The translations under genes and the position numbers were made by a program. The notes below the pieces were generated by a model. It did no database searches. It was given only the letters and a program-made list of their open reading frames with translations, and was not told the DNA's origin. Positions 26,198 to 55,111 of a stretch of 64,000 bases of DNA are shown piece after piece. The stretch is taken from the NCBI GenBank assembly GCA_000934665.2, contig KZ538320.1, positions 1 through 64,000 of the forward strand. Reading direction: 5' to 3'. Origin of the DNA: Catajapyx aquilonaris. Lineage: Eukaryota. Numbering within the stretch: position 1 is the first letter of the stretch; each line of letters opens with the position of its first letter.

Positions 26198-26610
26198 CCT
26201 CTGTTTGTTCATGGTGAGTCATCAGTACTATGTGTGCCAACTATACAGGGTGTCTCAACTTTTTTGTCCGAACAGTTATCGAAAAATTGCACGTAGCTGC
26301 TACTTTATAAGCAGTGACTTGCAAACGGTGGTTTGTCGGGGGAGTGGGGAATGGGGAAAAATAGGGTCTCACATCCCATGGCATGTGTGACCCTCTTTTT
26401 TCCAGGCTTGACCTTCAATTTTCAGCGGGCAGCACGTATATGCCACTTCAACCTACGATTCGCAGGGGAATATTCCCCGCTCCTCCGAAAAATCACCGTT
26501 AGCAAGTCACTGCATGCTTACAAAGTAGCAGCTACGTGCAATTTTCCGATAACTGTTCGGACAAAAAAGTTGAAACACCCTGTATAAGACATATAGTACT
26601 ACGTCCACAA
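26198..26610 (-). repeat. Family C cassette interrupted by MITE A copy 2
   Basis: CCTCTGTTTGTTCATGGTGAGTCATCAGTA...GTGCCAACTA[TA-MITE-TA]...AGTACTACGTCCACAA. The two flanks join into a match to 47141-47230. Confidence 0.75.
26246..26582 (-). mobile_element. Tc1/mariner-type MITE family A, copy 2 (opposite orientation)
   Basis: TA|CAGGGTGT...ACACCCTG|TA. The interior is the reverse complement of that in copies 1 and 3. Confidence 0.95.
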
Positions 26611-27952
26611 TGTCAGCTACTACCGGCTACTACAGATGATTTTTAAAAATGAACTCAACACAGTTAGCGCAACTTATTTCCAACACTGAGCTTGAGGGGG
26701 TAACAATATGGCCAACTTTTGCGACGTTGCCAAGGCTCGAACGATAAAGGCTACCGGTGTGAATTTGGCCACTGAGGCAAGATTGTTGTTGGAACAATAG
26801 ACTTGCGCGAGTGTGGGTGCGCACTCGGTTGAGCTCGTCAAAAAATTCATATTGAACTGACACGTCATCATATTATGACGTCCTTGTCATCGTGAAGGTG
26901 TCCTTATGTTTCAATTAGATGAATATGCAAATGGCCATTTTAAAGTCCTTTAACAGTTAGATCTGCCCTGTCTGGCCAGGGGATAGCAGTAATATATTCA
27001 GAATCCTGCTGTCCCGGCATATTTTTTGAAGGGCCCTAATTTTCCACCGTTCCACCACCGCCCTCTACTTTTAAGGACGTGGAATTATAGGGTTGTCACG
27101 ATTTTATCATATGACGGAATTGCGGGCTTATTTTATGGGGCGCTTGGTTGCCTCCCTCCGTCCCTCCCTCTTCCTCTCCCTCCTCCCCACTCCTCATTCT
27201 CTGCCAACCCGAGCAGAATTTGCCGACAGGGATTATCGAAATTCTGTCAACGAAACTGCTATAACAACGTTTCTTGCCACACAACCAGACTGTTGTTGGG
27301 GGAGGATGGGACGGACCTAAAAAAAAGAGAGAGAAAATAGGAGGGGTCAATAGTGATAGACACCAGTTATTTTGAAGCAAAGCCAGCACGAGAGAGGCTA
27401 TAAAGCTATGAATGACAATATGTCAGCGAACAAGTGTCGCTATAGGGATGAAAAATTGTCACCAAAGCTCGACACATTCCTTTACCTGCTACAACAGCCT
27501 GAACTAGAACCAAATGAAGAGTCACGGCTGAAAAACCCGAGAGCCAACTTCCTAATTCCCCATCACTGTGTCGGGCCGTAATTGCCAAACTTTTACGCAC
27601 CCCTAAGAAGAAAAGGAGAGATTGCAAGACCACGTTTAAAAGCAAAGAAAAAAAGGGGGGAGTCTGTGTGCGAATTAACCCTTGCAGCTTCTCCTTCCAA
27701 ATCCTGGTAGCTTCATTATGCACTTCATTATCGCCCCCCAACCACTCTCCTCCACCTCTCTTCAAAACTTTCTAACCCAGAAAAGCAAAGTAAACAACAC
27801 GGCTTGACAAGCCAGCCAAAAAAATGACAACGCTGTTTTTCACAGCGGATTAAGCCTGGTCCTGGTTATCTTTTAAGTCCACCAATCAGTGTTGGCCTTT
27901 GGAAAAAGTTTGATCAAGTTAGACCTATGTCCAAATGTAGGGATGATAATTC

Positions 27953-28091
27953 CTACGCGACGAAGGGAGTCGGGGTGGAGGCGCGGGGCAGTTCAGAGAG
28001 CGCGTCCGAATAGATGTGACGTCAGAGTGCATCTCGCCATGGCAACGCCACAATAAAGTTCGTTGGCCTGCGCGCCACAAAACATACAGTA
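27953..28091 (+). repeat. Dispersed repeat family D, copy 2
   Basis: Homologous to 2099-2225, with an extra segment containing TGACGTCA (28017-28024). Confidence 0.85.
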
Positions 28092-28107
28092 ATTATTATT
28101 GCGCTTA

Positions 28108-28429
28108 CACGAAGAGGCGCAAACATTCGATTTTTGCGTCTCTCTGTTTGGGGCGTTGCCAGGGCTGGCGGCCATCTTGAAGTGTGGGGAACGCCAACGA
28201 GATATAAATAGGGTACAGGCAAAAATAGGGTCCCCATCTTTGATTCGCGCGTGTTCTTGCCGTGTAGTTGCCATGGCCGCCAAAACCATCAAAGATGGCG
28301 GACCCTATTTTTGCCTGTACCCTATTTATACCTCGTTGGCGTTCCCCACACTTCAAGATGGCCACCAGCCTTGGCAACGGCCCCAAACAGAGAGACGCGA
28401 ACATCAAACCGAAGTTTGCGCCTCTTATG
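28108..28429. mobile_element. Fold-back MITE with ~135-bp arms
   Basis: AAGAGGCGCAAAC...GGCCATCTTGAAGTGTGGGGAACGCCAACGAG...CATCTTTGAT (28112-28244) pairs with 28288-28426. TA lies at 28106-07 and 28430-31. This explains the mirror-image ORFs in the track. Confidence 0.9.
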
Positions 28430-29365
28430 TAGTATATGCTCCCTGCTGACTACATCCACAATCGTTGGTGCTAATAAGTAGCTGTTGATTGGTATGTCCC
28501 AACAACAACGACGATCGTGTGAACATATAGCTATTACATTTCCTGCAAAAACAATTTTGCCAAGCTTTAACCTGAATTTGCAAAAGGTGCGAGCTCTCAC
28601 ATGTCCAGCGAAGATACGATTAATTCAGGCTCCAGAGGTTTTGAAAAGAGAAGGGTGATGAAGCTGGGGCCTCGATTGGTGGATTAATTTTGCAAAATGG
28701 TTCCTGCCATCCCCGGATTTTTGTGAAGGATTGCATACCCCCTGGCGGGTACATTTTTTTGAGGGGAAAAGGCCCGGTTCGTCCTTTTCCCTCGGGAGAG
28801 CTTCCGACTCTGTAGGTGTGGAAATGGGTTGAAAGCCTGTCCCCACAGGTTCCTTTGAATCGCATTCATTCTGGATTTTGCAATCTGTGCAAATGAAACG
28901 CTATTCCGCACCCACGTCCCACCCACCGCGTCCTTTATCTTTATGCACAGTTTTGCACCCGAATGCTGCTCGACTTTCCCTTAGCTTTTCCCCCTGACCT
29001 GATGGAGTTCCCCTGCCCTGCACACTTCAGTTCAAAACGTCCGGCGCAGGGACTTTTCAGGATAGGGATGTATTAGCACCGGACGAGCCGAGTTTTTCGC
29101 CCCAAAAAAAGAAATTACGGGGGCTTTCCAGGCTTATCTGGACACGTCCAGGGAGATAAGCGGGGTTGCCACTTTTGTCCGGACGAAATTGGACCGCTTT
29201 GTGGCCGGTTATGTCGAGCAATTTGTGTTTGTTGTGGACGTGTCTGCTGGGGGTGAGAGGATGGGCCAAAGGGACGTTTGGGACGGGACATGTCCGGTGC
29301 CAAAATTGTGGCGAATTTCAACAGTGTGCGAGAGTTGATTTTTTTCGTGGAAGTTAAGGACATGT

Positions 29366-29400
29366 TGACTAATTATAGCGTTTCCTCTTTTTAGGTAAGT
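29366..29400 (+). promoter_or_regulatory. Putative recursive splice site (ratchet point)
   Basis: Branch-like TGACTAAT (29366-73), pyrimidine tract TTTCCTCTTTTT (29381-92), AG (29393-94), immediately followed by the perfect donor GTAAGT (29395-400). Confidence 0.7.
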
Positions 29401-30757: not shown

Positions 30758-31096
30758 AATAGCGACTTCATGTGCAATAATCGAAAAATCGATCTTATGT
30801 GCAATATACATCATCGATAAATCGCGAGATTGATCCCATATGTTATGTATCGAAATATCTCCCTCGTGTGCAATCGACTTGATGTCGATATTTCGATATA
30901 TCAGGTTGAATAAATTTCTCGACATATCGCGCATGAGGTCGATATGTCGCATGCGAGGTCGATATGTCGATATATTGCACATAATGTAGATTTTTCGATT
31001 ATTGCGCATGAGGTCGATATGTCACGTGCGAGGTCGATATGTCGATATATTGCACATAATGTAGGTTTTTCGATTATTCCGCATGAAGTCGATATT
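30758..31096. mobile_element. TCGA-rich MITE with a 75-bp tandem duplication of the right arm
   Basis: Left arm CGACTTCATGTGCAATAATCGAAAAATC..TTATGTGCAATATA pairs with TATATTGCACATAA..TTTTTCGATTATT..GCATGA(G/A)GTCG. The right-arm unit recurs at 30929, 31004 and partially at 31079. Confidence 0.8.
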
Positions 31097-34000
31097 TTTG
31101 AATTTTGATCGATATATTTAGTGACTGTTGATAATCATCATCATTTACTTCACGGCATAAATCCCGTGCAGGGGTAGCCAGCGGAGTCCAGGTTATACAT
31201 CTGTCCACCTCATATGACCGAGTGTTGATAATGAGACTTTTCAGTGTTGGTCAGGTTTTATTGTGTCATTTAAAATTAAAATTGCATGGTTTACCAGCCA
31301 GCATCCAGAGCAACAAAATTTTGAGGCACAGAAGCACAAAGCGATGTCATAAAGTCATTTCCACGGATTGAAACAATGAAGTCAACATTTCAAATATGTA
31401 TGAGCCAAACACAAGCACAATTTGCTGGGAGTGGGTGAATAATGGACAGTTTTTGATTCTTGTCCACTACCCCGTGAGTGGAAAGTTAGTTTTGTGCGGT
31501 TGTTTTATTTATTTATTTCTGTGGGAAACAACGGCGACCGCATCGCATGATCGAAACCTGCTACATCGAACGTGAAATTGTTACCCATTGTCGTGCCTGT
31601 AACTGGAGACGACAACAAAATAAAAATCCACTGCATTGTTGCCAGTGTGCTATCGAAAAATCGCTGGCATTTATCAAAATGTCACACACAGTTACGAGAC
31701 GCTGAATATGCATGTCATTACCCGGAAAAAGTGCATTGTCTCTCATTGAGCTGTTACACTGAAGAGTCAGGTTTACTGCCAGGAAAATGAATGCGATTGT
31801 TCGTCCATAATGCACATTGTCCGAAACCTTCTTGTAAACACATAGTATCTGGTGCTTCACATACTTTCTTGGTAACGCCTTGCTGTCTTGTCTGTGATAT
31901 GATGAAGTACAATGCAGTTTGGTCGGTGTCGGCAGTGGCGGCAATGCATCAAGTTTAAACGACGTTGTGATATAAGTAGGTGCCCGTCACCATGATGTGA
32001 CGCTGATGTCGAGTCCGCCTGATTTATGGGCCACCTCTTTCTCTACGGGGCCCATTGTTCTTGCCCGTAGATCGAGTCTGGCTGAGGAAGTGGGGCGGCC
32101 CACGGGCATGTTGGGTGTGATTAATATTTGCTAGCATAGTAGGTGTTGGTAATTACTCAGACAAACTTGTAGAGCGAAGGAGAACTTTAAGAGTAGGGCT
32201 CATGAGCATTAATCAAAGCGGATACAGCCAGCGATATTTCCATCGCCTTGGCCGCCATTTTTTTAAATTAAGGTTTGGATGGATGCATACCTGCCAGGAT
32301 ACTTTTGAAGCTCATTTTCTCCACAACGAGGCTGCGTAGACCAAATAGCACCTCTACATAAAATGATCATTAGGAGCCATTGAGTTCATCCTGCACGTTT
32401 ACAATCAATATGAAACACCTTGCATGTGCTGCGTGGAAATTTTTAGATCCTGTCATATGCTGGAGATCCAGGGGAGGAAACTGCTGGGATTTTAGAACCA
32501 GTGCTTTAGAGCGTTGGAGGGATGGAGAGAGAGAGAATGTTGTTTGGGTTTCTCTTTCGGGTCTGGTTTCGTAGCCCCGGGGCCGATATGGGATGTGGCA
32601 GTGTGTTTACCTCGTCTTCTCCTTTCATCGCTACCGCGCATTTAATCCTATTGCACCGGCTCTCAGCTCCTGCTAATCTGGTTATTCAATGGCAAAAGTG
32701 GGAGAGAGAGCCCAGGCTTGGATGGGGAAGAGGAAGAGACCTGATTTTTTTCCCTCCCATCTTCTCTTTTTTTTCTCCCTCAGCTCTACTCGAGGGGATG
32801 TTGAAGCAAGTGTTTTTCAGGGACGTACAGGAAGAGAGTGAGGCTTGAGCCGATTATGGCGCCGTAGATTTTTGGGGGGTAGTCTGAAGGCTGTGTGCAT
32901 TGACGGGACGTGAACGAAAAAGTAGCACACCCAAAGTACGCCCAATTTTCACTTCTGGAGTAAGCAGGACGTGTAAAAGCTCCTGAAAATGTGCATGAAC
33001 ACATAAACACCATTGGTTGAATTCAGAGAAGCTGTTTAATTAAACGCTACTTTTAACCGTCAAATTTGGTGAATGTGCGTAACACTTTGTGGATTTGAGA
33101 GTGGACACTAGTGTTGCAGGACTGTACCGACAGGAAACCGTAGCTTTGTATGACACACTACAGTGCCATGATTCCTGCGGTTGCGACTTGCGTTATTAAA
33201 TCACGATCTCTCACCTCTGAGCTCATGTTTAATGACTATTCAGTCTGTGACGCACCGGTCGTGTTACAGTGTTGCTAAGCCATAGAGACACCAAATAATA
33301 GATCATCTGATTACACTTCAAAGTGTTTGCATCAAACAAAAGTATACTGCATTTAATGTGAACATTCATTAGGCCGGTAATTTTCCACCTTGCACTGCTA
33401 GCAGCCAATCTATTTGGGACTTTGTAAGTGGCTCCTGTGAGAACATTTAAGTCTGAACCTTTTTTTGTGTGTGTGTGTGTCCGGAACAATTTCTTTTCTT
33501 TCTCCTTGCGAAAAGTCTCACCTGTGGCGCCATTCGAGTCCGATCCGGCCCCTATTTGTCTTACGACTGTAACTGTCCAAGATGGAGGAAGGCCCTTAAT
33601 CTAGACACCCTCCTACCCTTTTCCTCTATCCCCCCTTTTGCAGTTGACTTATTGGCCCAATTCTGGGTCGGAGAACTGGTCTATTAGCTAATTAAACCTG
33701 ATACCCCTCCTTCTGGCAGGAAGGGGGGTTTAATCGAGTTGCCTTTCTCCCTTTTTGCACGCCGACTTTGCTGGTTACACTTAAGAGGCCTGATTAGCAC
33801 AGGAATTGTTAAGTGGATGCGGATGCCAAGTGTCTCTTTGGCGCCCAAAAACCCCCTGCAACTTTGGCATGGGACGTGGAGGATACGGATGCAAGTTTGC
33901 ACCTAAGACAGGTTGTAATATGATGCAACGATGGTGCCAAGTACTGGGTGTAAAATTCGATGCAAAAAGCGATCTGTTTGCACATAATAACTATAGGGTT

Positions 34001-35258: not shown

Positions 35259-35442
35259 TTTTGGACGCCACGTTTTGCTCTTTGAAAATTTATAACGAAT
35301 TCATGCACTTTGAGGCGACTAATGATGGTGTTCAAAAGGTTGGCTATAATAGCCAATTTCAATATTTTAAACACCATCATTAGTAGCGTCAAAGTACTTG
35401 AATTCGTAATAAATTTTCAAAGGACAAAACGTGGCGTACAAA
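35259..35442. mobile_element. Fold-back element / MITE remnant
   Basis: ~78-bp imperfect arms: ACGCCACGTTTTG..TTTGAAAATTTAT.ACGAATTCA...CTAATGATGGTGTT against its reverse complement, with a central TTGGCTAT-A-ATAGCCAA hairpin. Confidence 0.85.
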
Positions 35443-37915: not shown

Positions 37916-38627
37916 CTCTACAGAGTTATGGTATACACTATACAGTATTACGATTTATTTGTCACACCCTGTGGCTCATCTCGAGATTTTTAATCAAGAC
38001 GCGGTGTCTTTGAAGGTTTGACGTGCATGACGACACAAGAACAGTGTGTCATTAATTCGGGCGTTGAAAAGTGAAACGATTTGAATCCGCTTTCCACTTA
38101 ACCGGGGGGATAAACCGTCGTGACTCAGCTCTTATTGGCTGAGAAGGTCCCCCCTCCCAAATCTTTGCTCAAGTAATAATTTGTTCCCCTTGTTCGAGCC
38201 TCGCTAACGAACAGGAAGAAGCCAAAGCCCCCTTTTCAGCACCATTTTCATCCGCGGAAAATCCTTCTCGCTCCCCAACCAGATTAAGTCCCCAGATTTA
38301 GTAGGGATTGACATTAACTGAGTATATCAACTTGAATCGTCTTTTCATGTCTGTTGCGGCCGGAATGAGAAAGGAATTGCGCTTTTGCAGGGGATTGGTA
38401 TTGCTCGTGTTTGACCGCGCGGAAACAACCTGCTTGGGCTTGTCGTATTGCAAGGTAATTGTTTGGACTGATCGGTTCGAGTCAGGTTGGTTTACACGGG
38501 GGTCTGACAGGCAAGAAGATTGCAATTATCGCAAACTGTGATGATTTTAAGCCTGATTCACATAATGCGATTTTTGGCGTACTATACACATTCGAGGGAT
38601 TTTTTTCTAATATGTGTTAACCAAAGC

Positions 38628-38778
38628 TTGGCAACACTGCCCGGCCAGCCTCCCACTTGGACATAGTACGATATGCCGCTGCCAGGTGGCACACAGACTC
38701 ACTCTCTGCACACTACCGCCGGTAGCAGGGGGAAGGTAGCAGTACATGCACGTTGGTGATGAGTCACCTCGCGGACAT
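38628..38778 (+). repeat. Family C cassette (CTCF-like + AP-1-like motifs)
   Basis: TTGGCAACACTG...CACTTGGACATAGTA...CTGCCAGGTGGCAC (38679-92)...TACATGCACGT.GGTGATGAGTCACC..CGGACA. Aligns along its length with 45984-46125. Confidence 0.85.
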
Positions 38779-39727
38779 AGCCCACCAGCACGTTTCTCGC
38801 TTCAGTTGAAGTGTGTCCCTACCTCTGACCACAATACAAGTATTGTAGAGAGTGAACCTGCTGTGTCATGTCATTCCTGAACGAGGAAAGTGATAACTAA
38901 TGGTGCACTAGGCGATTGTGTCAACGCGAATTATGATTATGATATGCGCCTAACCGAAGATTTTTGCTTTAATTATTCTGGTTTGTGCTACATGCCTTTT
39001 AAGGCGGTCCTCCTAGGGTTTCCAGTCCGACCTTAAGTGTCGGCCAGGTTGCATACCTTGCAAGAACACACGAGCCGAGAATGGATTCGGAGAGAGATGG
39101 ACCGTGACAGGGTAATCTCTCGGACGACCTACTACTATGAGGGTGGGTGTCTGTGGTGGTGGGAATTACCTGTGGGATACCCCCTAGTTTTTTTGCCTGG
39201 TCCTTCCCATCAACTTCACTGGGCTCGAAATGGAGATAGACACTGGATAGCCGCCGGTTGCTCCAGGGCTTTTAGCGCATCCGTCGGAATGGATGAGCGT
39301 CTCTTTCTCTAGCAGACTGGGCGTGGGATGAAGCAACAGCAACAACGAAGAAAAAAAAGGGGAAGCAGCACCGGTGTACAGAGGTTGGCAAAAGGGAAAT
39401 TTGGGATTCAGGAGCGCGTTGGATATAAAGTAGGTATGGAGCCAGGGTGATTAGGAAATTGGGGCAGGAGGTAGTAGTGCCTCATTTGCAAGGCGGCTGA
39501 AGAATAATCGGCCGGCTAATCTCCTGGGCTGCACGGATGGAGAGAGGGCTACTCTTTAAACATTTATGGCCATCTGAAGAATGGCTGGGAACAGCCTACA
39601 TTTTAGATGCTGCTTAAGACGAAGTAGGTGAGCGAGTCAGTGACGGATTGTGTCCCTTACTGGTAAAGATTTTTATACTAATTGCACCACACAATTTATA
39701 GATATTCATCCACCGTATTTGAGTGTA

Positions 39728-39849
39728 TGCCTCTGTTTGTCCGGGGTGAGTCATCATCTCCGCTCAGCTATGAGCATGTAGTGTCATTACCTCTCGCACG
39801 ACCTTGAGTAGCAGTAGTAGACAGAAAGGTAGGGTGCTCCATCTATGTG
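39728..39849 (-). repeat. Family C cassette
   Basis: Reverse complement reads CACATAGATGGAGCACCCT...CACTACATGC...GATGATGACTCACCCCGGACAAACAGAGGCA. Confidence 0.8.
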
Positions 39850-42800
39850 TTGAATATGGTACAAGTTTTGGTTCACTAGTATGCTACATTATATTCTGTT
39901 ACAAGTATTTGCTAGTGGCCTCGTTTTAAGGTGCGCATACTCAGTGGCTGGCTTTAAAGACGCTTATTTTAGAGGCATCCTTGGGTTTTTCTTTATCCTT
40001 CCTCCGCCATTCGTCTCCCGATTAAGGCCCAGTTGGGAGCCCGATTTTTGGAGGGAGCCAGACAACAAGTGGACCCTTTGGAAGGAAACGGATTTTCCAG
40101 CCCGCTATAAATATACGAGGGAGGCATAAAATGGGTTCTCCGGATGGCGGTCAGGGGAATGGTACGTTACCGGGAACTCATAACTGGAGGGAATTCCGCA
40201 AGCCTCTTTTGCGTTGTCTTTCGCCATTATTTTTGGTGGTGTGGAAAGGGGGGGGGGGTGTCCCTGCGGTGCAAAGTAATGCAGGGGACGAGTAATGTAA
40301 CAGGAGAATAAAAGTGAAATAAAATGTGAGTGTCGGGCTAATGTGTCCTGAGGCGAGTTCTTTGTTGAGAATGCTGAGGACATTGGTAATCCGGAGTGGA
40401 AATGGCGTGCAGATATTTCTCCGAGCCCGCGATTGTGTGAGCCCCATCAGGAGCACAATTGCATCTGATAGGTGAAGATTTCCAGACGAATTAACTTCCA
40501 GGAGAAGCAGGAAAAGCTGCTCGTCATCACTCCTTTTCCGATTGGACGGAAAAGAGAAATCTCTTTACGTTTTTCTAAACGTCTCCGCCCGAGCATGTTG
40601 ACGAATTAGTAGGCGAGGAAAGCAACCATAAATCAATCTCCAATCCAACCCCCCCAGTTTCTCCCTCGTGTTATTGTTGATTAATCGCCCCCACCAGTCC
40701 TGGATCCGCAGTCCATATTCGGCATTATGGTTTTGAGCTGATGGTCGCCGCCATCTTTGTGGGGGCCGATTGAGCCCTACTCGAGCGTGCCTAGATTTTT
40801 CCACTTCCGTTTTCATGATGGATTGGGCAACTTTGTAACCGGAGGGTTTCATGCTCATTAAAATACATGCACTCGTAGGAGGGGTCACCGTGTGACAGTC
40901 GGTCGTTGTAGTCTCCTAGTTCCGGTTCCAACCCCATTTTCCTGGTAATGCGCACCCATGTATAGGATCCCCAAGTGCGATGGGAATGACAGCGTCGTCG
41001 ACAAGTCCAATTAACAGGCGTCGAGGGTAGGTACGGCAGTCGCAATCGCTTAATCTTCATTTGGACGGTCTCCAGGCTGCATGGGCTTCATATCCTGTGT
41101 CCCCTCCTTTCCTCTGCCAAGAAAACAATTGGGTGGTGGTGGGAGGAGGAGGGAGAACGGGGCGCCATTTCCTTTGACGCCACTGTATCCTTCAAGTTGA
41201 TTATCATAATAGATGGCACAAAAGCGAGGCTGATGACAAAAGCCGGGAGGGGCTTTGGGGGATGCCCGGCAGGGGAGGGGATTCGGCCAACTAATTGAAT
41301 CTAGGTTCACCCCCCTGAATCTTGGGAGGTCACACTCCCCCCTCCCCTTTTTCAAGCCAGGTGGGCATCTGCCCTCCTCTTTGATACACACTAATTCCAT
41401 TTTCAGGGGGACCGGGTCCTGCTGGATGAGCAACCGGATTTGCTCAACTGCGCTTTCCGCCTGCTCCTTCACGCCTAATGGCTAACCTTTGTACCTGACA
41501 AATTTGTTTAGTTGCCCATACCAACTGGCCCGGACGCGACAAAAAAAAATACAGTTCTTTGGATGGGTACACAGCTTTCTGAAGCGTGTTTGCAAACTCC
41601 AAAAGCGTGGAATGTCGTGCACTGTACAGCATGATTCTAAAGCTAGGTAAATATCGTCTGATAACAATGAAATTACGTAAATATTTTAAAATGAAACAGT
41701 TACTATAGGCATCAATTTCCAGAAAGGACCCCAGGTTGCCAGAAATTTGAAAGAATGTTGTTACTTTATAAAACAATTGCATGCAGAAGTAGATCATATC
41801 TCAATATAAATTTACATACGAAGAGTACAAGCACCTGAGAATATTACCTTTGCCAGGTGAATGTTTCTAATGAGATAATGTTCGCTTCACTTGGTACCCT
41901 CACTCCCTCCGTGGAGCATGCGTGGAAATTTGAAAAGTGGGAGGTTCCAAACGTGCATTTTCGGAGGGCCGCTGCCTATATTATTAAGTTGAGTGGATTT
42001 GTCATTTGCGTCGAATCATCCCAGTACAAATGAGACTCCTAAAGAAATTCATAAAATGAGAAAAAAAATGTAGTTTGCCCCCCTACTATTATTGGTCCAT
42101 TTTTTTCGCTCTCTCCACTTTCACGCTTTTTTATAGAAAAAGGGTGGACTATTGATTGGTCCGGCGACAAAAGTTGGCAGGTCCCCGTGGGAAAAATTGC
42201 GTCGTTGGGGGGAGCTTTGGAAGGAAGGGGGGTGCTGATATGATCAGTAGCTGGGCCGAGACCAGGTTTTCGGAGGTGTTTTTTGGAGGACGTACACTGT
42301 AGCTGTGCGTCAAGGTGATGAAATACGATGCAGCTGGGAGTCGCATTTTTTTCTGGGGAGAGCTCAGACGCCTCCGGCTGCTTTATGGTTCCCATGACCA
42401 TCCTGCAAGAAAATGTCATTGAAAAAAAGGGAGGAAGGCCCCGTGCTTTTGCTTCCTGATTGATTTTCTCTGTACGTGGTGGAGTCGAAGTGCATGTCAT
42501 TAATTACCAATCAGAGCATTGCATCCTGCCAAGCCTTCCTCCCCCCCACTTAATATTCCACTCTTGGAGGGAACAAGCTCGGAAGGCGCACTACTACCCA
42601 TTGCTGCTGCTATAATTACCTTAATGGCCGTCCCGCATTGATCGTTTTAACGTTGGTAATGAGCAAATAAGCGCCCCCTTAATGGGTAAATAAATTTGGG
42701 TGCAATTCATCAAACTGGAAGGGATTGTGAGGCAATTGCACCCCGCCCCACCCCCCCTTTTCCAAAAACCATTCTTAAGAAAAGGAGGAGGCAAAAGGCT

Positions 42801-44485
42801 TCACCTTCCACCTTTCGCTCTTTTCTCATTGTCTCGTCCTTTTATTTCCTTTGGAAATTGATGGCCCCGCTGATGTTCCTTTGACGCGACATTTATTTCC
42901 AGGACTTCTTTTTCGAACCTAATTCTTCTCCCACTACGACGACCCCCCNNNNNNNNNCCCCCCCCCCATCACATCCGGGCCAATATTATCTCCTGGTCCT
43001 TGAATGCAATCGCTGTCGAGCTTCTCTTTTTTTGAGGGGGGAGGAAGAGGTAGGGGGTAAGGAAGAACCATCAAAAGGATTTGGGACGACGTATGAAGCA
43101 ATTCTTATGTACTGGAAAGCTTTCCTTCAAACTCGAATTTTAGAAGGTTATTTCCAGGAATTGTGTAGTTTAAAACGAAATTGTAGCTATAATTTTGGTG
43201 TCAAAAAAACCGGATATGAAAATCCTGTGCGGAAATTGCATTTAAAAAATATTTTGATAATGCCATAAGCGACAGTAAAAAAATGTAGCATCATTGGCTT
43301 AGCATACGTATACACCGTATTATGGAAATTGCGGGAAAATTTAATTTGCCTATGCTTTTTGTTTCGAAAATCCTTGTTGCCGAGTTAGAATCATGAAATC
43401 GAGTTATACATTTTCATTGTGATAAACATGCGGTTCTCATCGACATCCCGTATCTAATTTTGCTACTGAAAGAATTAGTATTAAAAATACATTACAGTGC
43501 TGATGGTTGATCCTGACTATTCAGGGCAACTCACCGCACAGCCATGTGTTAATCTAACTTCCAGGATACCGAGTCTCTGAGAGTTAGACCACGCAGAGCT
43601 GTTGTGCGGGTTGCCATGAACAGCAAGGAAAAACCGCTTCAGCAGAAAATGGAGGTGAAAAGATCTTTCTCGTGGGAATATTCCGCGTAGGCCAAAACAA
43701 GATGCACTGATTTCCTCCAACCGCGTGTTTTCCTCTAGACAAAAGCCCTGCGAAAAGTTGGGTCCTCTGAGGGTGGGGAGAGAGAGGATGGGGGATGGAG
43801 GAGGCAGCCTTTCCCAAGTTCCAGGGCTGGGAGAGTGGGTGGGGTTGGAGGATGACTTTGGTAAGTTTGATTGCGGGGTATGTGAGTAGCAGCAGCTGTA
43901 AAGAGCAGCAGCAGAGGTTGGCTCCAGAGAAGAGCACTAACTTGTAAGTTGGCGGCTCTCTGATCGATACCCAGGGTTGGGTACACACTCTCTCTCTTTG
44001 CCCTGGGTTAGGATGCTATGCCCCCCCGCTTTTAAACCGCCCTCTCTAGTCTTCCTAATGTCTCTGTTTATCCTGCCGCTCCTTTGGTCTGTTTTCCCTT
44101 CCCGTTGTCGTTGATGGGCACGGCTGCCTTTGCCTACCTGCTGCATTTCCACGTTAATGGTACGTAAAATGACTCTTTGGATTTTTTACGACTCCGCGGA
44201 ACTCGTTGAATGCTCGGTTTTAAAAAAGCGGGTAGGCATGTGAGGGGAACCTATAACAGAAGTTTATTAGGCGGCGTTTGTGGCCTCTACAGAAGCAACT
44301 ATATGCACTGCCGAAATCTGAGTTCATACTGTCCAAGTATGTCATTTGCATGCTGAGATAGCCAACCCAGATTGTAGATAATTGCACTAATCATCCGTTG
44401 ATCTGAAATTCGCATTGCAATACTGTATCTGTAAGTCATAATATACTCTCTAAAAGTATTGCGTACAAATTTGATACGTACAGTA

Positions 44486-44571: not shown

Positions 44572-44761
44572 TACATCATGTGTGTACGTATATTGTCCTT
44601 TTTACACGTACCAGTGTATGGTGAAGACACAAATTATCTACAGAATGTACGGTGTCTAATGTACGCAATGTAAACACAATATGCATATGGTTTTTGAAAG
44701 CGCAACGTGTGCACCCTGGATACACGTTGTTTTTAGAGAGTACCCTTATGGCCCTGTCAGG

Positions 44762-45483
44762 CACGGTACGTCGCAACATGTGCCCTATTATTTTAATTGC
44801 GAGCGTTAGCGATCTGACAAGGAACATATCTCGGGTGATAATAGCGGAACTTTATGAAACTGAATATGCTCATAGAGGACAATACACGTATGATAAAAGT
44901 GAAGGAAATGAGACCCATATTTGCAAAAGTTATGAGGTATTAAGTGCCAAAAATAATACATTTTTGTGCACAATGGGATTACCTTAGCGACCGCACACAA
45001 TGATATTGAAGTATGTAATAAGTTTTTATTGTACCAAATTTACATTATTTAACTGTCACACAATTTATTTGCACATACACAGTTCACGTTTTAATGAATG
45101 GTTTATACAGTGGTTATGCAGTAGGACACTTAGGTGGTTCTGTATAGTGTTTATGCGGCAGTACATTTAAGTCGTTCTGTTTAAACCGTTCATTAAAAAG
45201 TGAACGCTGTATGTGTAAATAAATTGTGTGACAGTTAAATAATGTAAATTTGTTACAATAAAACTGATTACATACTTCAATGTCATTATGTGCGGTCGCT
45301 AAGGTAATCTCATTGTGCATGAAAATTTACTATTTGTGACACTTTAACACGTCATAACTTTTGCAAATATGGGCCTCAGCCCGAAATGAATTCATTTTTG
45401 GTTATCATATATTGTTCTTAATTAGCATATTCAGTTTCATCAAGATCCGTTATTATCACCCGAGATAATATTATGTTCCTTGT
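44762..45483. mobile_element. Large fold-back element (~290-bp arms), right end apparently truncated
   Basis: 44817-45110 is an imperfect reverse complement of 45177-45483, e.g. CCCATATTTGCAAAAGTTATGA / TCATAACTTTTGCAAATATGGG and ATTACCTTAGCGACCGCACA / TGTGCGGTCGCTAAGGTAAT. The left terminus at 44762 (CACGGTACGTCGCAAC) is inferred. Confidence 0.85.
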
Positions 45484-45499
45484 GAGCTTTTCTTGTGGG

Positions 45500-45700: not shown

Positions 45701-45983
45701 TATGCAATGCAACGATGGCAGCGTCTGTAATGCCACAAAGTTGGAACAATGGATATTGTTGTACTCGGAATAATAACGTCTGGAAACTTCCTGTTTCACT
45801 TGCTCAGAACCAGCTGCTCAGTTAGATATTGTTTGGGCGTTGTATGAGTGCCAGCGTGTAAGGAGGCCATTCCATACAGACCGGTTCTAGTCTATTTACC
45901 AGACCAGTTACTGTATTTGGCTGAAATTAACACCAACCTGATGATCAAAAAATGTTGGATTGCACGTCAGAATATGTCGATAT

Positions 45984-46125
45984 TTGACAACACCGCCCGG
46001 CCCACCTTCCACTTGGACGTAGTATGACATTCCACTAGTAGGTGGCGCACAGGCTCGTTCTCTGCACAGTACTGCCCCGCTCAGAGGGAAAGTAGTACTA
46101 CATGCACGTAGGTGATGAGTCTCGC
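45984..46125 (+). repeat. Family C cassette
   Basis: TTGACAACACCGCCCGGCC...CACTTGGACGTAGTA...CTAGTAGGTGGCGC (46035-48)...TACATGCACGTAGGTGATGAGTC. Confidence 0.85.
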
Positions 46126-46809
46126 CTAGCAAGGGCGCCCAGTATCCTCCTCCATCTATTGACCTACCAGCGAACACGGATTAGACCGGACATCACAGGT
46201 CCTGTTTATCGAGGAGAATAACGATATTAGTCACCCCTGCAGCTTTGATCGTCCATGGCCAAAAGGATTTGGAGATAATAGCTGGCCGGACATTCCACGC
46301 CGGACCTGGGGGGCAGGGGAGTCAAATGCCGGGTTGTTGAATGGGGCTTGAGGAAAAGGGCAGCGCAATTTGGCAATGGGGCAAAGGGGAGGGGGGGGGG
46401 GGCTCCCAATCATGGGGGATGGGACATCAGCCAGTTGACCCACAACACTGATTTTTAATCCGGTGGATTAGAGGGGACCGAACAGGTGCAGAAGAATGGA
46501 CGTATGGTGTTGGGCCGAGTGATGGTCCGACCCAGGCGCCGATGCATTTTGCACGCTGTTCAGTTCTAATAAATGGAACCCCGAAGCGCGTCACGTCCGC
46601 ACCCGCGCCCAGAATTTGATCAACGTCATGCGGGGCCAGTGTCGCTTCCAATGACACTGACTTTGGACCCCGGACTCTCTCAGTCCCCAATCTGTATTTT
46701 GTGCAGATGGTTATATACGTGGTCCGGATATCTTGCAAAAAAATTTGGCAGTCTTGGAAGTTGTGTTCCTTTTTGTTTTCAAAAATAAATTTTTACTTGT
46801 CATAATATA

Positions 46810-47118
46810 CAGGGTGTTTCAACTTTTTTGTCCGAACAGTTATCGGAAAATTGCACGTAGCTGCTACATTGTAAGCAGTGACTTTCGGAGGAACCGGGAA
46901 TATTCCTTGCGAATCGTAGGTTGAAGTGGCATACGTCCTGCCCGCTGAAAATTGAGGGTCAAGCCTGGAAAAAAGAGGGTCACAACATGCCATGGGATGT
47001 GTGACCCTCTTTTTCCCCATTCCCCAGACAAATCACCGGTTGCAAGTCACTGCTTACAAAGTAGCAGCTACATGCAATTTTCCGATAACTATTCGGACAA
47101 AAAAGTTGAAACACCCTG
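46810..47118 (+). mobile_element. Tc1/mariner-type MITE family A, copy 3
   Basis: TA|CAGGGTGTTTCAACTTTTTTGTCCG...GTTGAAACACCCTG|TG (right TSD mutated), with a small deletion at the inner edge of the left TIR. Confidence 0.95.
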
Positions 47119-47140
47119 TGTAGAAGTGGATTGGGTCTGT

Positions 47141-47248
47141 TCCTCTGTTTTGTCCGCATTAAGTCATCAGTAGTGTGCGTAGAGGGGGGTATGCGCCATC
47201 TGTGTGAGAGTTGTAGTAGTACGTCCACAACGGGGGCAGTGTTGCCAA
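47141..47248 (-). repeat. Family C cassette
   Basis: Reverse complement reads TTGGCAACACTG...TGTGGACGTACTA...CACACAGATGGCGCA...GATGACTT..GCGGACAAAACAGAGGA. Confidence 0.85.
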
Positions 47249-48499
47249 CATTTATATCGTATATTGAGGTTAAATGATACAGTAATATAACAAGTTACTT
47301 AACAGTTAATAGGCTACTCTTGATTATAGTTTATTTATTGATTGTAAGTCATACTGTGCTAATGTTAACATTTATTTGTTATTTGTTATTTTCGCTTATA
47401 CTGTACACAGTTTATTATAATTAGATGATGTGTCCGATAATGTACAATTTGGTGGCATATATTACTAATATTTAGGCTATATGAGCTGAACGTTGTGTCA
47501 TGTTCTGGTTGCATCATTGGAGGATGATGTGGAAAATTAGATTTTGATTTGTTTTGATATTACATAATGTAATTAATAAATTACGCTTTCCATTTAATAC
47601 GGGATGCACAGTGGTTGTTTATATACTTGCTAGGAAACTTATCAGAATTTGAAAATTACTGGAAAAACACCCGTTCATTAATAAAAACTAGATATATATA
47701 TATATATATTTTAAATTGTGACCCATTTCGGAAATATTTACTGGCGGTGATGGAAACGTTCAATTGTATATGAATTACATGAACAACAATCACCGAGGCA
47801 GCTTTGCGTTAGTGAAAGTGATTATATTTTGAACTTTTATACTACCAGGTTGCGCCACTCAACAATCTTTGACCACATTTTAGCCAACAGTTTATCGCGT
47901 GCCATAAGTCCTCTCTCAGAGGCTTTAAACGAGAAATTATTTACGGCCGGTTTCACCTTTACCATAAAACCTAGTTCCTATCTGGAAAGTGACACGTAAA
48001 GGAGAAAATCCATTGTTGATTACTGTTGACACACACTGTTCTCAATCCGGATAATTTTAACCCAACGTGTGTTGTCATCTTGGTTCCGTTTTATTTCCCA
48101 ACAACGTTGCCACATCTTTGAACCTGGTTGAAGGGTCGAACTCGTCTGGGTTTTTTTTTCTCTCCCTGGATTGTGGCACGCACCTGCTGAGGTGCATAAA
48201 ATGGTGGTATGTTGGGGGTTAGAAAAGGGTTCGTTGGATGGGTGGGAAGTGGGTGGGGTGATGTGGGAGGATGGAGGGAGGGGGAAGGGGGGGAGGGGTT
48301 GTGTAGACGCCGGCGCCAAGTGGTCCGGATGGATCCCCGAACCCTGGCCCACCCCTAGATGGAGCTTGGCTGTCACAACGATAGGACCTATTGCAATTCG
48401 ACTCCTGGACCATGTGGGATCTTATCAGGACGACGGAAACAGTGAGAAAAAGTGTTCGCGAAATGTTCATATGACACACCCTGTGATATTTTTTTTATT

Positions 48500-49079: not shown

Positions 49080-50535
49080 AGCCTGATATAATAATAATAT
49101 AAGAAGATTTAAGTCACGGAGCGAAACAACATTAATTTTGCTGAATGAGCCGGTATAAACGGACGTAATGGCTAAGTGCTATTTAAAAATGATTTAAGGA
49201 GGATTTAAGTTGCGGGTGGGCCTGGAGCTCTCCAGGGCTTCAGTTGAATTTAATGCTGTGAAACCTGTCCATAACCTCTGGAGAGTCTGAACACACCGGA
49301 GTTTTAGTTTGGACTCCCCGGATAAATTCTGTCGCACAAAACGGAAATTTTTCTAGAAATATTAACTTTCATTACTGGAAAATATGCCAGACTATTTTTT
49401 TGCAGTGTGATTGAATTTATGCGAGGAGCAAAAAAAAACTAATTAGATAATTTCTATCTTAGGATCGGTTTCGCGAAATTAATGGAAAATCTCCGGTTAC
49501 GTGTATTGTTCGTAGTTGCAATTTATTTTGCTTTCTGAACTGCAGATGGTATATATACGTCGTTAGAAATCTGGAGGTCTTAATAATTTCATCGATCTTC
49601 ATCTGACCATCTGGTGCAACTGGGCGCAATATGTTTTTTTTTTCTCGACAAATATAACCGGATAGGACCATATGAACAAAGATTATGAAAAATATATGGT
49701 GGATTCTAAAATTAGCGGCATATACGTAGATTACGTTATGAATATGACCTGACGTGAGATTCACACATATGAACGCAGATTAAGGATTTTGCCAAATTCG
49801 TGTTGATTCAACCTACAACCTCGTGAAACTAATATTATTGTTATATTATGCAAGTAGAAGCATGTGATTTCCTTTGCATTGTTTAAGGAACACCAACAGC
49901 TTGGAGCCAACCTCCCACACTTTCAATACGCGTCTTGAACACTCTTGTGTGTGCTAACCTAACACCAGGTTAGTCGGAACCGTACCAAATTTTTTTCCAT
50001 CCCCAAATATCCGGAACGCCTCCGGAACATGTGTAGGATCGTAGCCACTAACCGCATTAGACACGCCCCGTAGAATCGGGGACCAACAACCTGGAGCAAT
50101 CCGGCCTGCCTAACACTGGAGCCCCGGACTCTGCCTGCTACACGCTTTGCATTATTGAGTTTATGAAGGTTTTATAAACTCGGTGCCGCGCACCGTGTAA
50201 TGCGGACGTTCTTATCTATGGAGAGAGAGGGGGGTTCTCGAGCCGGTGTTGCGTACAGTGTGCTGTCCGGTTTTTGTTCGGTGCGTTTGGGTTGTAATAC
50301 CAGGGCCAATTGGGGTTGTCAAGTGGCTTGTGTGGCATTGGCGTCGCTTGAGAGCGTTTTTAACAGGGCTGTCTGGGGGCTATAAATGCGACGGGTGCAC
50401 TAGACTAGAGGTTCCAAACACGCTCTATTATCCAGTCTGGCGACCCAATTTGATAGGGAATTTTTGAACGTGGAATTGGCTGGATTCAGAACATGTTAAA
50501 TTGAGGAACAAATCAGCCTATGTTATGTTGGAAAC

Positions 50536-50819
50536 ACTGGGTGGAATTTTCGTGGTACAATGTTGGACATTAATCGAGGCATACTGCTAGCGACATTTTC
50601 CATAGCGGCAGAAGAAGGAATCGAAGATATAAGGATACTTCAAGCCGGGCGAGCAAGATTCTTTCTTCTGCCGCTTCGGAAGATGTCGCTAGCAGTATGC
50701 CTAGATTAATGTCCTACACTGTACTACTAGTTACTTCTAACTTAGCAGTACCAGTGAAGTGCAATGGTACTGCTAAAGTTAGGAGTAACTAGTAATATGA
50801 CGAAAATTCCACACACAGT
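50536..50819. mobile_element. Older palindromic MITE (H) hosting a nested MITE
   Basis: After removing 50558-50723, the left arm ACTGGGTGGAATTTTCGTGGTACTACTAGTTACTTCTAACTTAGCAGTACCA pairs with TGGTACTGCTAAAGTTAGGAGTAACTAGTAATATGACGAAAATTCCACACACAGT. Confidence 0.85.
50558..50721. mobile_element. Tc1/mariner-type MITE (G), nested
   Basis: TA|CAATGTTGGACATTAATCGAGGCATACTGCTAGCGACAT...ATGTCGCTAGCAGTATGCCTAGATTAATGTCCTACACTG|TA. Confidence 0.92.
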
Positions 50820-50903
50820 CGTGCTGGTAAAAGTGGGATGATCGAGTGCGCACCATAGTTCGCGCAGCCTGCACGGTTGACATTATCAATGATTTCTGGA
50901 GGC

Positions 50904-51111
50904 GCTTAGGACAAAGTGGCCCAAGTTCATTTTTTACCATTTTCGTGATACGACACAGAAGACAGCTCCAAGTTGGTGCAAAATTGGTGTAAGTTCTGGA
51001 CATTTGGACAGTAGATGACCTAATCGTATTTATGATCCAAGGAGTTACGCCATGGAGCTGGTGAATTTTGAAGCTTTATTTTTATGGACTTGGGCCACTT
51101 TTGTTGTAAGC
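50904..51111. mobile_element. Degenerate MITE
   Basis: GCTTAGGACAAAGTGGCCCAAGTTCAT ... ATGGACTTGGGCCACTTTTGTTGTAAGC inverted ends. Confidence 0.6.
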
Positions 51112-51235
51112 TTATTGTGTGTACTGGTAAATAAGCTCAGGATGTGTATTTCCAACGCTACGCTGGGGGGGGGGGGCTATGTTTGCGACATTTCTAAGGC
51201 TATAGAGGCTATGGGTGTCCCCTGGTGAGTCACTC

Positions 51236-51315
51236 TGGCAACATTGTCAGAACTATGGAAGCTGCGTGAGTGTAGGTGCGCACTCGATCGACTCACCTCG
51301 GGCAAACTTAGGCAC
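51236..51315 (+). repeat. Divergent family C-related copy
   Basis: TGGCAACATTG..AACTATGGA...TAGGTGCGCAC...GACTCACCTCGGGCAAACTTAGGCAC parallels 55004-55111. An extra TGAGTCA sits at 51226. Confidence 0.55.
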
Positions 51316-52947
51316 AGACTTTTTGCGTCCTCTCCGGTCAGTAGTCTACGGGCTTCTCATAGACTCGCCAGTTTTGTAGTAATGTGAAGCCATCAGAGGT
51401 TTTACCTAATTGCGTGCATCAAAAATTGAAGCAACGTCTCTGTACTTGGCTGCTTAGTTAACATTGCGTGCATTGAAGCGAGCAATCAGCCCACACGTCA
51501 GGGACTTGACGACATTGTAGACTCGTGGCATCTCGGGGGGCTCTCCCGCTGTGACAATCGCAATTCATAAGCACAAAGTAAGGCGGTAAGCGTAATGAAT
51601 GCGATTGTTGTCACACACCCCCTTGTGTGTAGGTTCTCCTCGGGGGGTATTCTCAATCAAAGAGCTCAATTGCTCTCCCCAGCCTTTTAGACAGCAGGCA
51701 ACAAGTTCCAATGGCAACAGCTGTGGAAATGGACTTAGCAACACTCGGTGCCAGGGTCGGGGGGAGGGGGAAAAAAAGTGTAATAATTGGAGTGTTTGCC
51801 GCCTGGAACAGTTGCGCTGAAAACAAATGGTGTTGTGTCTACCCCTTGAAAATTTTGGCGGAGTAAGCTTTTATCCGGGGTTTTTCCCCCCCGGGCTGTC
51901 TTGCAGAGTTTGCGGGCCTCAGAAAGGGGGGGGGCTCAGATGCTAATCCTAAGTTGCGGATGACGTGGGCCGGATGGTTCTTCTCAGCATAAGATGAATC
52001 GCGGAGACAACGCATAAATGAAGACTGACTAATTCTGGGAGATTTCCCGGATACCAGAGGCGTGGAAAAGAGGCCCGTCCTCCCGGATTTATCACTGCTG
52101 GGGAACATCCCCAGAACTTTCCTAAACGCGTCTCGACCGCGACCTGCATAAATCCGTCAGATTCAAGCGCGTATTCCTCAGGGCAATCCGGACTTTTCCT
52201 CTGCTGATTTCCCCCGCCGGATTGGCCACATGAGTATGAAGGACGGATATCCAAATTCGCAAATTTTTTTCTTGCTTTTCACCCTCCCACATTTTAAGTC
52301 CAAAGTCTGTGAGGATGTGAAAACGACGTTAAGCTGGAGAGCTGGGATATTGCTGAAATGTGGCGGACGTGAGCAGGAAGCAAATTCGCAGATTTTTTTT
52401 TCTCTCGCCCCCCACTACCCCCCAGTTCTTTCCAAACTTCTTTTTTTTTGGCAAAATGGTTCCCTCTACCCTTCTTGTCATCTCATGAGAGACGTATCCC
52501 CTGGTGCTGATAAAAGCCGGGACTTTGCCTTTTAATGCATTCGGCCTTCTCCCAGGTTTTTACGCTTTCTGTGTAGCCAGTAAGTTTTTTTTCCCCCTGG
52601 AAAAAAAAAATGGCAGGCAGAAAATGTGGGCGAACTTAACTCCGAGCGAATACCTCGAGAGAGAACCTTTTCATTCCGGTCTCTTGGCACATGCTGTATT
52701 TTCCGGGCCGTGACGTTACCTGGGTATATCATATTCATGGAGTTATCAGCCGGGAGCGACACGACGGAGAAGGCGTGTGTATAAGGCTACATTAGGGGCA
52801 TTCACACTGCAACCGAACCCATTACGGAACCGGCCCACTTTTTGGTTGCTTAATCATTGATCATCTGATTCCATATTCGTCATTTTGCAAAAGTGCCAAC
52901 CGAAATCATATTTGTTGACCCTTTTTTTAAATATTTGTGCTAACTTA

Positions 52948-53088
52948 CTATCGGGTTCAAATACTTTTGGCCACTTTATCCTGGTCTTGAAGCAACTCTT
53001 TGCACAGACCCCACGTTAAGGAGGTGTGTGTTTGTGTTGGTTGCTTCAAGACCAAGATAAAGTGGCCAAAAGTATTTGAACCCGATAG
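52948..53088. mobile_element. MITE family E, full copy
   Basis: TA|CTATCGGGTTCAAATACTTTTGGCCACTTTATC...GATAAAGTGGCCAAAAGTATTTGAACCCGATAG|TA, with TIRs of ~49 bp. Confidence 0.95.
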
Positions 53089-53094
53089 TACGTA

Positions 53095-53205
53095 CAGTGC
53101 TGGACATATTAGCAGTACCTAAATGTTTACGTAGCTGCCAGGTAACGCCAGCGACGCTTATGGCTAAAAATAAACGTTTAGGGACAGCCAATATGTCCAG
53201 CTGTG
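53095..53205. mobile_element. Tc1-like MITE (F)
   Basis: TA|CAGTGCTGGACATATTAGCAGTACCTAAATGTTTA ... TAAACGTTTAGGGACAGCCAATATGTCCAGCTGTG|TA. Confidence 0.8.
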
Positions 53206-55003
53206 TACTAGTAACATGATCTTGGCTTTTCGATTGTACTTACGGACATTTAAACCACTCTGTTGAGATGCAATAACATTACACCAATGAGCATAGTGTT
53301 ACTGACAACAGAGAAGGGCTTTACTAGGTTGGGTTACAGTGAGGTCAACACCCTTCTATTGTTACCACAATTATTGATAAATTTTCCACATTGTTTGAAT
53401 GAAGCGAGCGACATAATGAAAACTTTGAAACATTTTTTGGTGAGTTCAGCCTGAGGGTAGCTAAGATTTTAAAAAGGATAAGTAGCGCCCGATGAGGTGT
53501 TGCGAAAAGGAAGTTTGGCCAGGGGCGCTTTTTTCCCAGAGAGATAGAAGGGGAGGCAAAAATGTTGATAACGATCCAAAGGAGTACAAGTGGTGGAATT
53601 CCGGTGGGGTCAGAGGCAGAAGTGAATGAAGAGAGAGAGAGAGGCCTGAGTGGCTGCTGCCTTCCGTGAAATCCCACGGCGTTGCCAATCCTCTTTTGGC
53701 GACCATTTCCCTTAAAAGCTCTTCTCTTTTTTTAGATAAAAAAATTCAGGCATTTACGTTCTACTTGAAGCGACAATTTTTTGGCAGATGTGTATCAGCT
53801 TCAAGTAAGAGTGCATGCAACTATATACTCTTAGTGCAAAGTTCAGGCCCCCCTCGTTTTGTCTGTGCCCATCACCTGTCTCCTCCTCTCTCACTTAATA
53901 ATCGTTACCTGCAGATTTGCAGGCGCCGTTCGGAGGTCACACGTCAACCCGGATTACGCCCCGGATCTCTTTTCTCTCCCGGAGCTGCCTTCTCTCATGT
54001 CCTCACCTTCCCTTGTCAGAGATATAGCCTTTCCTCTCGCCCTTCCTTCTCCATCCCATTTTTCATCCCCTGCTTGGCCCCTAAAGAAATCTACAGGATG
54101 CTACACTGCTTACTGATATAATTTCGGCCCGTTGCTTGTAACAATTTGAAGTAACTGCTTTATAATTAATTTTGAGCAATGGAACACCCTGTAGTACATC
54201 TATAGGGGCATATGTTATCAGTAGAGCTCGTTCGTCATTCCTCTGCCTCCGGGCCTGTGTTTGGAGGCTGCTTCTGCGCCCGGATTCTACTTATCCGGCG
54301 TATTATGGAGGGGTCCCTAGAGGTCGGACCGGAAAATACATCAACATACGTACTACGCCTCCGTCGCCGGTTTATATGCTCGGTTTGTGGCGCTTCCGGT
54401 CCTTGCCTTTCTTTATTTCCTGATCCGGTGGCGTAAGGGTAAACGTGGATGGTGTGTTTTAATCGAAGGAGGGAGACCAGTTTGTTGAAAAGATTATCGA
54501 TTGCCTATTGGCTGGTGTTGGGACTGGTTGGAAGATGCTCAAGTTCTGCTGTCTTGGCGATTTCGTGCGAATAAAACGCAGGAAAGGGCCGGAGTAAAAG
54601 GTTGGGGAAAACTGGTACTCGTGCAGACAACCATCGTGTGAAATATTTACTTTTTTTTAAAACTAGTTACTGGGTTTTTGAATCAATAGTTTCTCCTCTG
54701 TGACTGTGGACCAGCCGGCATAAAATGGCGGCCACTTTGCGGAGAAGAAGAAAAGAGAAAAAGGAGGCAAGGTCATGCAAGCAGAGCTTTTGATGGACAG
54801 ATTTATTTCCGGGTTGGTTCTGGAAGTGACATCGGTTAACGAGAGCAGGAAATGAAGCGGGCCAAGAGGCGTCTTTCTTCCTAGCTGCGGGGGACAAGTG
54901 GAGTTGTTGGAGAGGAGGTTTGAAGGAGAAGAAAAGAATGGCCATGTTTCCACTGGACATGGTTCTGCACAGCATGCTGAGCAATAATATACGTAAATAA
55001 ATA

Positions 55004-55111
55004 TGGCCACACTGCTACGCAACTATGGACGTAGTGTCAATTCTTTCCCATAGATGGCGCACCCTCTCGCTCTACACACTGATGATGACTCACCGCGGAC
55101 AAACAGAGGCA
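55004..55111 (+). repeat. Family C cassette
   Basis: TGGCCACACTG...TGGACGTAGT...CCCATAGATGGCGC (55047-60)...GATGACTCACCGCGGACAAACAGAGGCA. Confidence 0.85.

Follow-up and report, generated by a model that had tools for sequence, protein, structure and literature searches.

Common descent as a candidate source of ordered CTCF-, AP-1- and Motif 1-like words in a repeat family of Catajapyx aquilonaris

Background

Rodent B2 short interspersed nuclear elements (SINEs) are said, in work of Bourque in 2008 and Schmidt in 2012, to have spread CTCF sites. B2 is a tRNA-derived retroposon of RNA polymerase III (Pol III), with A and B boxes, a tail, target-site duplications (TSDs) and measured CTCF binding. 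A related situation was proposed for a short cassette that recurs in a 64,000-nucleotide stretch of DNA from Catajapyx aquilonaris (Eukaryota; GCA_000934665.2, contig KZ538320.1, positions 1-64,000, forward strand), hereafter the window. An original prediction, made from the letters of this stretch, described five blocks (B1-B5), with words like those bound by CTCF and AP-1 and like the fly Motif 1, as an ordered grammar preserved among dispersed copies. The cassette resembles B2 as a short interspersed repeat bringing a CTCF-like word to many places, but it has neither a tRNA match nor a TSD above the null, and just 3 of 7 copies keep the CTCF-like word whole.

Two Drosophila systems invite comparison. 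The transposon-associated, multicopy predicted boundaries of cdBEST (Rt1a, Rt1b and GATE), as presented in the relevant parts of PMC3378885, are likewise repeat copies with clusters of boundary words, found by sequence alone. Those copies are assigned to named retrotransposons and share >90% identity over 100 bp, whereas the cassettes are 47-73% identical, unclassified and no more than putative boundaries. The second system is that of the Motif 1/M1BP-CP190 promoters at fly domain borders, which the cassette recalls in its first block; where PMC8263732 treats these borders, Motif 1 is described as acting at promoters of active genes. Beside the cassettes, by contrast, no gene, exon or core-promoter word was found, and the Motif 1 consensus fits a single copy of the seven at ≤1 mismatch.

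The window itself offers a further point of reference in its foldback elements (5869-6195, 26242-26586 and 46806-47123), which we take to be of the Stowaway-like class. Like the cassette they are short, non-coding, dispersed and found in both orientations; they have clear terminal inverted repeats (TIRs), TA duplications and 82-87% identity, whereas the cassette shows none of these and is much older.

Results and discussion

Homology among the cassettes

We read the cassette loci as a decaying, unclassified interspersed repeat whose word order was inherited by descent, and give this reading a probability of about 0.5. Its foundation is homology. Self-BLAST of the window, which is independent of any profile, aligned 45984-46121 with 38628-38765 (79.0% over 138 bp, E 8.7e-27), 54986-55120 with 47265-47131 (71.9% over 139 bp, E 8.7e-8) and 55081-55111 with 39758-39728 (96.8% over 31 bp, E 1e-6). 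An nhmmer profile built from the copies recovered them at E 3.7e-37 to 6e-12. In the fairer leave-one-out search, where each copy was sought with a profile built from the others, seven of the eight were found (E 7e-15 to 3.6e-3), and these are the seven that had been predicted; the tentative eighth (26765-26872) was not recovered when left out of the model. Copies occur in both orientations, similarity ends at the cassette edges and the flanks are unrelated. Pairwise identity among the seven ranges from 0.47 to 0.73, and mismatch from the consensus is 13-34% per copy. The relationship is real, and the seven cassettes are diverged copies of one short ancestral sequence.

The words of the cassette are over-represented in the window relative to chance or shuffle expectation. 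AGRTGGCGC was found 7 times against 0.61 expected and, at ≤1 mismatch, GATGASTCACC 6 times against 1.46, TGGCAACACTG 11 times against 1.14 and TGGACGTAGTA 5 times against 0.51, while CGGACAAACAGAGGC at ≤2 mismatches occurred twice against 0.05. Block order is collinear in every copy. The original description of a dispersed repeat family carrying factor-like words in fixed order is borne out.

The family reaches ~25 bp further 5', to an AATATRYG word, than the first block of the prediction, and falls into three sub-forms. The short form comprises c55004, c47141 and c26198 (copies are named by position; Table 1). The long form (c38628, c45984 and c39728) is longer by ~57 bases ahead of the AP-1-like word and carries an insert of CCCGGCC type behind block 1, and the variant form is represented by c51236 and, weakly, by the tentative copy. 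At 26198 lies a whole cassette that is split by a 345-bp foldback element, with the 5' half on the far side. The fragments reported at 12354 and 13269 were sustained when alignment scores were compared with those of 300 shuffles. Candidate fragments at 50529, 13345 and 58532 received no support from the shuffle test and were dropped.

Descent, decay and missing hallmarks

The loci go back to one ancestral sequence of ~150 bp (short form) to ~200 bp (long form), which was most likely either a mobile element of the non-autonomous kind or the regulatory end of a larger element. Transposition would have dispersed its copies, which are now eroding by substitution, deletion, truncation and nested insertion. 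The CTCF/YY1-like, AP-1-like and Motif 1-like words would be the ancestor's own regulatory words rather than sites selected by the host. Should this be right, the family is one more unclassified old repeat for a repeat library, and a caution that common descent alone yields a collinear 'motif grammar' among repeat copies.

Several observations weigh against decay of a mobile element. The CTCF-like word, in the form of the fly pattern CTCF-M2, is enriched in the window (6 against 0.70 expected). Mismatch counts are more uneven from column to column than in shuffled data (variance p 0.002; 92 well-filled columns, 7-8 copies), a pattern that either constraint or a bias of the alignment might produce. 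All eight copies fall between 26 and 55 kb, the outer 21 kb of the window being free of them, and local duplication would explain this no less than transposition. Finally, no hallmark of a transposon class was found, whether TIRs, TSDs, a 3' tail or Pol III boxes. Among inverted words shared within a copy or a pair, the longest had 4-8 bases and did not exceed the null (mode 5-7), and the longest direct shared word at the cassette flanks was 5-7 bases, so that no TSD stood above the null among copies 13-34% off the consensus, a divergence at which loss of TSDs and tail is expected. The copy sequences read showed no poly-A or simple-repeat 3' tail. As for a SINE head, ARAGORN found no tRNA (0 tRNA genes in the window), Rfam gave no match on the cassette at E≤5, and the fit to the Pol III A/B-box consensus was poor by eye. 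The absence of TIRs, TSDs and Pol III boxes noted in the prediction was therefore upheld. Such absences are weak evidence either way, because ~20% divergence would mostly erase these features. Metagenome scans for the cassette returned 0 matches, and viral-contig scans one chance match only, in a phage coding region (L001).

Because the copies are restricted to 26-55 kb, local duplication stays a live rival to a decaying mobile repeat. The copies would then be immobile, local duplicates of a regulatory element or of the promoter of unannotated, fast-evolving non-coding transcripts, of which only the promoter-like part can still be aligned. This is unlikely in our judgement, although it would accommodate the crowding of all eight copies into 29 kb, the alignable cassettes between unalignable flanks, the lack of transposon hallmarks and the three close inverted pairs (26198/26772, 38628/39728 and 45984/47141). 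However, such pairs are at chance frequency (3 against 2.45 expected, P 0.42, for 8 points in 29 kb), and the two members of a pair resemble each other less (0.58, 0.59) than do copies from separate loci (0.73, 0.69). Nor did a Pol II core promoter emerge. TATA and initiator (Inr) patterns, taken from fly work, stand at no fixed offset on either side (TATA in 1/7 copies and Inr in 1/7 on the tail side, Inr in 2/7 on the head side, all offsets differing). The copies have no downstream sequence or peptide in common, and when overlaps, the foldback element and the cassette itself are set aside, the flanks of different copies resemble one another in neither DNA nor peptide, whichever side is compared. 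Strand skews follow the whole window and are not reset at the cassettes.

Pfam searches of 157 stop-to-stop open reading frames (ORFs; 22 + 135) gave no family above its own cut-off, and four weak sub-threshold hits are at about chance level for that number. Two weak hints beside cassettes, LIDHydrolase at 50782-51075 (-) and TTI1 at 47751-47996 (+), were not confirmed: no homologue was found for the former and no PDB match for the latter. A promoter on the opposite strand was considered because these hints lie on that side, and was rejected when they failed the checks; given the weak eighth copy, it would set two promoters head-on within ~140 bp.

Word order and the question of selection

On present sequence evidence, the 'ordered grammar' is most likely collinearity from a common ancestor. 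Scoring of the five predicted blocks in eight copies confirmed that individual copies miss or mutate them, the numbers present at ≤1 mismatch being 5, 3, 4, 2, 3, 2, 1 and 0 of 5. Only c55004 has all five, and the other seven have lost blocks. The CTCF word is broken in 4/7 copies and the TGASTCA core in 3/7. Deletions removed whole blocks in c39728 and c51236, and the latter has also lost the CTCF-like word (GTAGGTGCGC) and has a degenerate block 2. In c47141, which abuts the foldback element at 46806-47123, the AP-1-like word is mutated (GATGACTTAAT) and one base is inserted in block 5. Block 5 is absent from c38628, whose CTCF-like word reads AGGTGGCAC, and from c45984, which has 2 mismatches in each of blocks 1 and 4. 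The tentative copy has 0/5 blocks at ≤1 mismatch.

True site-specific constraint predicts the same variable sites in both sub-forms, and no significant correspondence was seen between the variable sites of the short and the long form (three choices of copies; Fisher p 0.09, 0.41, 0.85). In the column shuffle that gave p 0.002, each copy's mismatches were permuted among the 92 columns, and the alignment itself favours such patterns. Clustering of conserved columns was marginal (runs p 0.077, invariant columns p 0.071, lag-1 autocorrelation p 0.057), and the share of changed sites was similar for CpG and non-CpG positions of the consensus (22.5 vs 19.1%). The comparison of motif and spacer columns that had been proposed as a check is accordingly divided, with uneven columns on one side and marginal runs and autocorrelation and a non-significant cross-form test on the other, all from 7-8 copies. 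With so few copies, the block and column data fall short of showing constraint and match the outcome of descent with decay, and the claim of a preserved ordered grammar was not supported: one copy in eight keeps all blocks, the cross-form test is non-significant and clustering is marginal.

The contrary possibility is that the host co-opted the repeat as an insulator, boundary or regulatory module and that selection kept its CTCF-, AP-1- and Motif 1-like words. We consider this doubtful. Besides the uneven columns, it could draw on the spacing between blocks 2 and 3, which is 26 bp in 4/4 copies with both intact, and on a precedent, since section 16 and Table 4 of PMC3378885 put transposon-borne predicted boundary motif clusters on record in Drosophila. 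The pattern of loss argues the other way: all five blocks survive in a single copy, the CTCF word and the TGASTCA core are often broken, 345 bp have been inserted between blocks of c26198, and the cross-form test gives constraint no significant support. In its passages on domain borders, moreover, PMC8263732 reports that fly CTCF is not particularly enriched there.

The identity of the individual words bears on the same question. The published Drosophila CTCF patterns of cdBEST include CTCF-M2, YAGRKGKCGC (PMC3378885, Table 1). This fly pattern fits 3/7 copies, position 13430 and two sites outside cassettes, and its enrichment speaks for the insulator; CTCF-M1 and CTCF-M3 fit 0/7. The central word also resembles the YY1/Pho site. 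For the AP-1 word TGASTCA, 6 of the 8 sites lie in cassettes or fragments, as co-option would have it, but the word is not enriched in the window overall (8 against 7.43 expected) and its core is broken in the copies counted above. Likeness to Motif 1 is weak: c55004 fits the fly consensus at ≤1 mismatch, the other six do not, and the window shows no excess (3 against 2.46 expected). A literature search for six block sequences returned primer-like chance matches only, and one for the CTCF words yielded nothing of use.

Some of these words also occur by themselves. The block 1 word is enriched outside cassettes, at 6 sites (one of them the 23810 fragment) against ~1.1 expected in the whole window. 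Isolated TGGCAACACTG-like words (≤1 mismatch) lie outside cassettes at 31634, 33267, 58532 and 62290, more than shuffles predict, and this may be a common genome word in its own right. Two opposed CTCF-type words 10 bp apart (TAGGTGGCGC and AACGCCACCCGGC) lie at 58943-58974, outside any cassette, and another isolated one at 2743-2752; no cassette sequence surrounds the solitary AGRTGGCGC sites at 2744, 10885 and 58944.

From the word matches, the best-kept copies are possible insulators. The more ambitious proposal, that an arthropod repeat family scattered a compound landing pad (CTCF/YY1-, AP-1- and Motif 1-like) over the genome and that a word-keeping subset such as c55004 serves as boundary or regulatory elements, seems improbable to us. 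If true, the dispersal of CTCF sites by SINEs in mammals would have a counterpart among invertebrates. Were a subset of copies to bind architectural proteins, the spread of CTCF-type sites by repeats, on record for mammals, would extend to arthropods, and this would bear on genome-folding evolution outside vertebrates.

Less probable readings

The cassettes are very unlikely to be the long TIRs of DNA transposons of ~1.0-1.3 kb (38599-39895 and 45959-47274). Two tail-to-tail inverted pairs do enclose ~0.7-0.95 kb, and the interior of pair 2 has a G+C of 0.55 against 0.27-0.43 in its surroundings. Identity between the two arms of a pair is, however, just 58-59%, below that between arms taken from different pairs, and no TSD borders either pair (the longest words in common have 5 and 6 bases). 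The two interiors show no relationship, the third pair is arranged the other way round, head to head, and the window has comparable G+C peaks elsewhere.

A small non-coding RNA gene such as a box C/D snoRNA, raised because TGATGA is kept in 6/7 copies and compatible with a central insert whose length varies as an expansion segment would, is highly improbable, as Rfam gave 0 hits at gathering score in the window and no cassette match at E≤5 in a permissive scan of 26-56 kb (hairpin repeats only), the consensus fold (-0.15 kcal/mol) had no consensus structure or covariation (0 compensatory pairs), 10 single-strand folds, covering both strands, did not exceed shuffles in stability (z from -1.92 to +2.08), and the sequences read contain neither a CTGA D box nor a terminal stem further downstream. 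A coding cassette was rejected, since the frame that seems to encode 'MMTHxGQTEA' is interrupted in other copies.

Table 1 Cassette copies, cassette fragments and associated foldback elements in the window
Feature	Position	Strand	Support
c55004, short form; only copy with all five blocks intact (0 mismatches in B1-B5)	54978..55131	+	nhmmer E 3.7e-37; leave-one-out E 7.2e-15
c47141, short form	47124..47274	-	leave-one-out E 1.3e-11
c45984, long form	45959..46125	+	leave-one-out E 6.4e-10
c38628, long form	38599..38791	+	leave-one-out E 5.5e-13
c39728, long form; blocks 1-2 deleted between two CTTGG words	39720..39895	-	leave-one-out E 2e-8
c26198, 3' half; blocks 3-5, degraded	26177..26241	-	leave-one-out E 3.6e-3
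c26198, 5' half; block 2 intact, block 1 lost	26587..26656	-	nhmmer E 3.3e-4
c51236, variant form	51224..51333	+	leave-one-out E 1.5e-4
Tentative eighth copy, variant form; resembles c51236 only	26765..26872	+	nhmmer E 3.3e-12 when in model
3' fragment (GATGACTCATC..GGACAAACAAACA)	12354..12395	-	nhmmer E 0.0058; 0/300 shuffles vs c55004
Middle fragment, region of blocks 2-3	12580..12633	+	P 0.007-0.01 vs c38628 and c55004; 0.09 vs c45984
3' fragment (ACTCACCCCGGACAAACAAACA)	13269..13312	+	nhmmer E 0.16; 0/300 shuffles vs c55004
Long-form 5' fragment (block 1, GGCCCACCT, ACTTGGACGT)	23810..23880	-	P 0 and 0.003 vs two long copies; 0.05 vs c55004
Foldback miniature transposon inside c26198, between blocks 2 and 3; TA duplication	26242..26586		85-87% identical to 5869-6195 and 46806-47123
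Second foldback copy, directly against the 3' end of c47141	46806..47123		self-BLAST

Foldback elements and other features of the window

The foldback miniature transposons are ~320-345 bp long and end in CAGGGTGTT(T/C)CAACTTTTTTGTCCG; in two of the three copies a TA duplication can be seen clearly at both ends. Two copies also lie in or against a cassette, and the one that splits c26198 is younger than the cassette. Descent of the cassette from the same stock was rejected, as alignment scores between the two lie within the shuffle range. Among 12 foldbacks, 2 touch full cassette copies (P 0.15); when candidate fragments are added the count is 4 of 12 (P 0.014), on a list that is post hoc and includes the unsupported 50529 and 13345.

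Other repeats accompany them. An imperfect palindrome of 673 bp (44814-45486; arms 77% alike) lies ~500 bp from c45984, and further hairpin repeats are found at 28112-28426, 35260-35442, 50552-50797, 52943-53093 and 12408-12582. Two hairpin repeats gave sub-threshold Rfam matches to plant-type microRNA precursors (MIR2630, 60 bits against 144 needed; MIR9746, 43 against 79) and are most likely hairpin look-alikes rather than microRNA genes. A 24-bp tandem repeat of 8.4 units occupies 11133-11333, and a 50-bp unit occurs twice at 13140-13240, with cassette fragments to both sides, as part of a rearranged patch at 12.3-13.5 kb.

The eukaryotic DNA of the window has a G+C content of ~44%, is poor in genes and contains only 11 ORFs of ≥150 amino acids. 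Runs of N, either assembly gaps or masked bases, occur at 42949-42957, 55420-55436, 1635 and 58146; the one at 55420 is inside a G-run ~300 bp beyond c55004. On the + strand G exceeds C and T exceeds A almost throughout, most strongly at 14-58 kb, and the cumulative G-C skew climbs steadily, which would fit a location of the window inside one long + strand transcription unit, for example a large intron.

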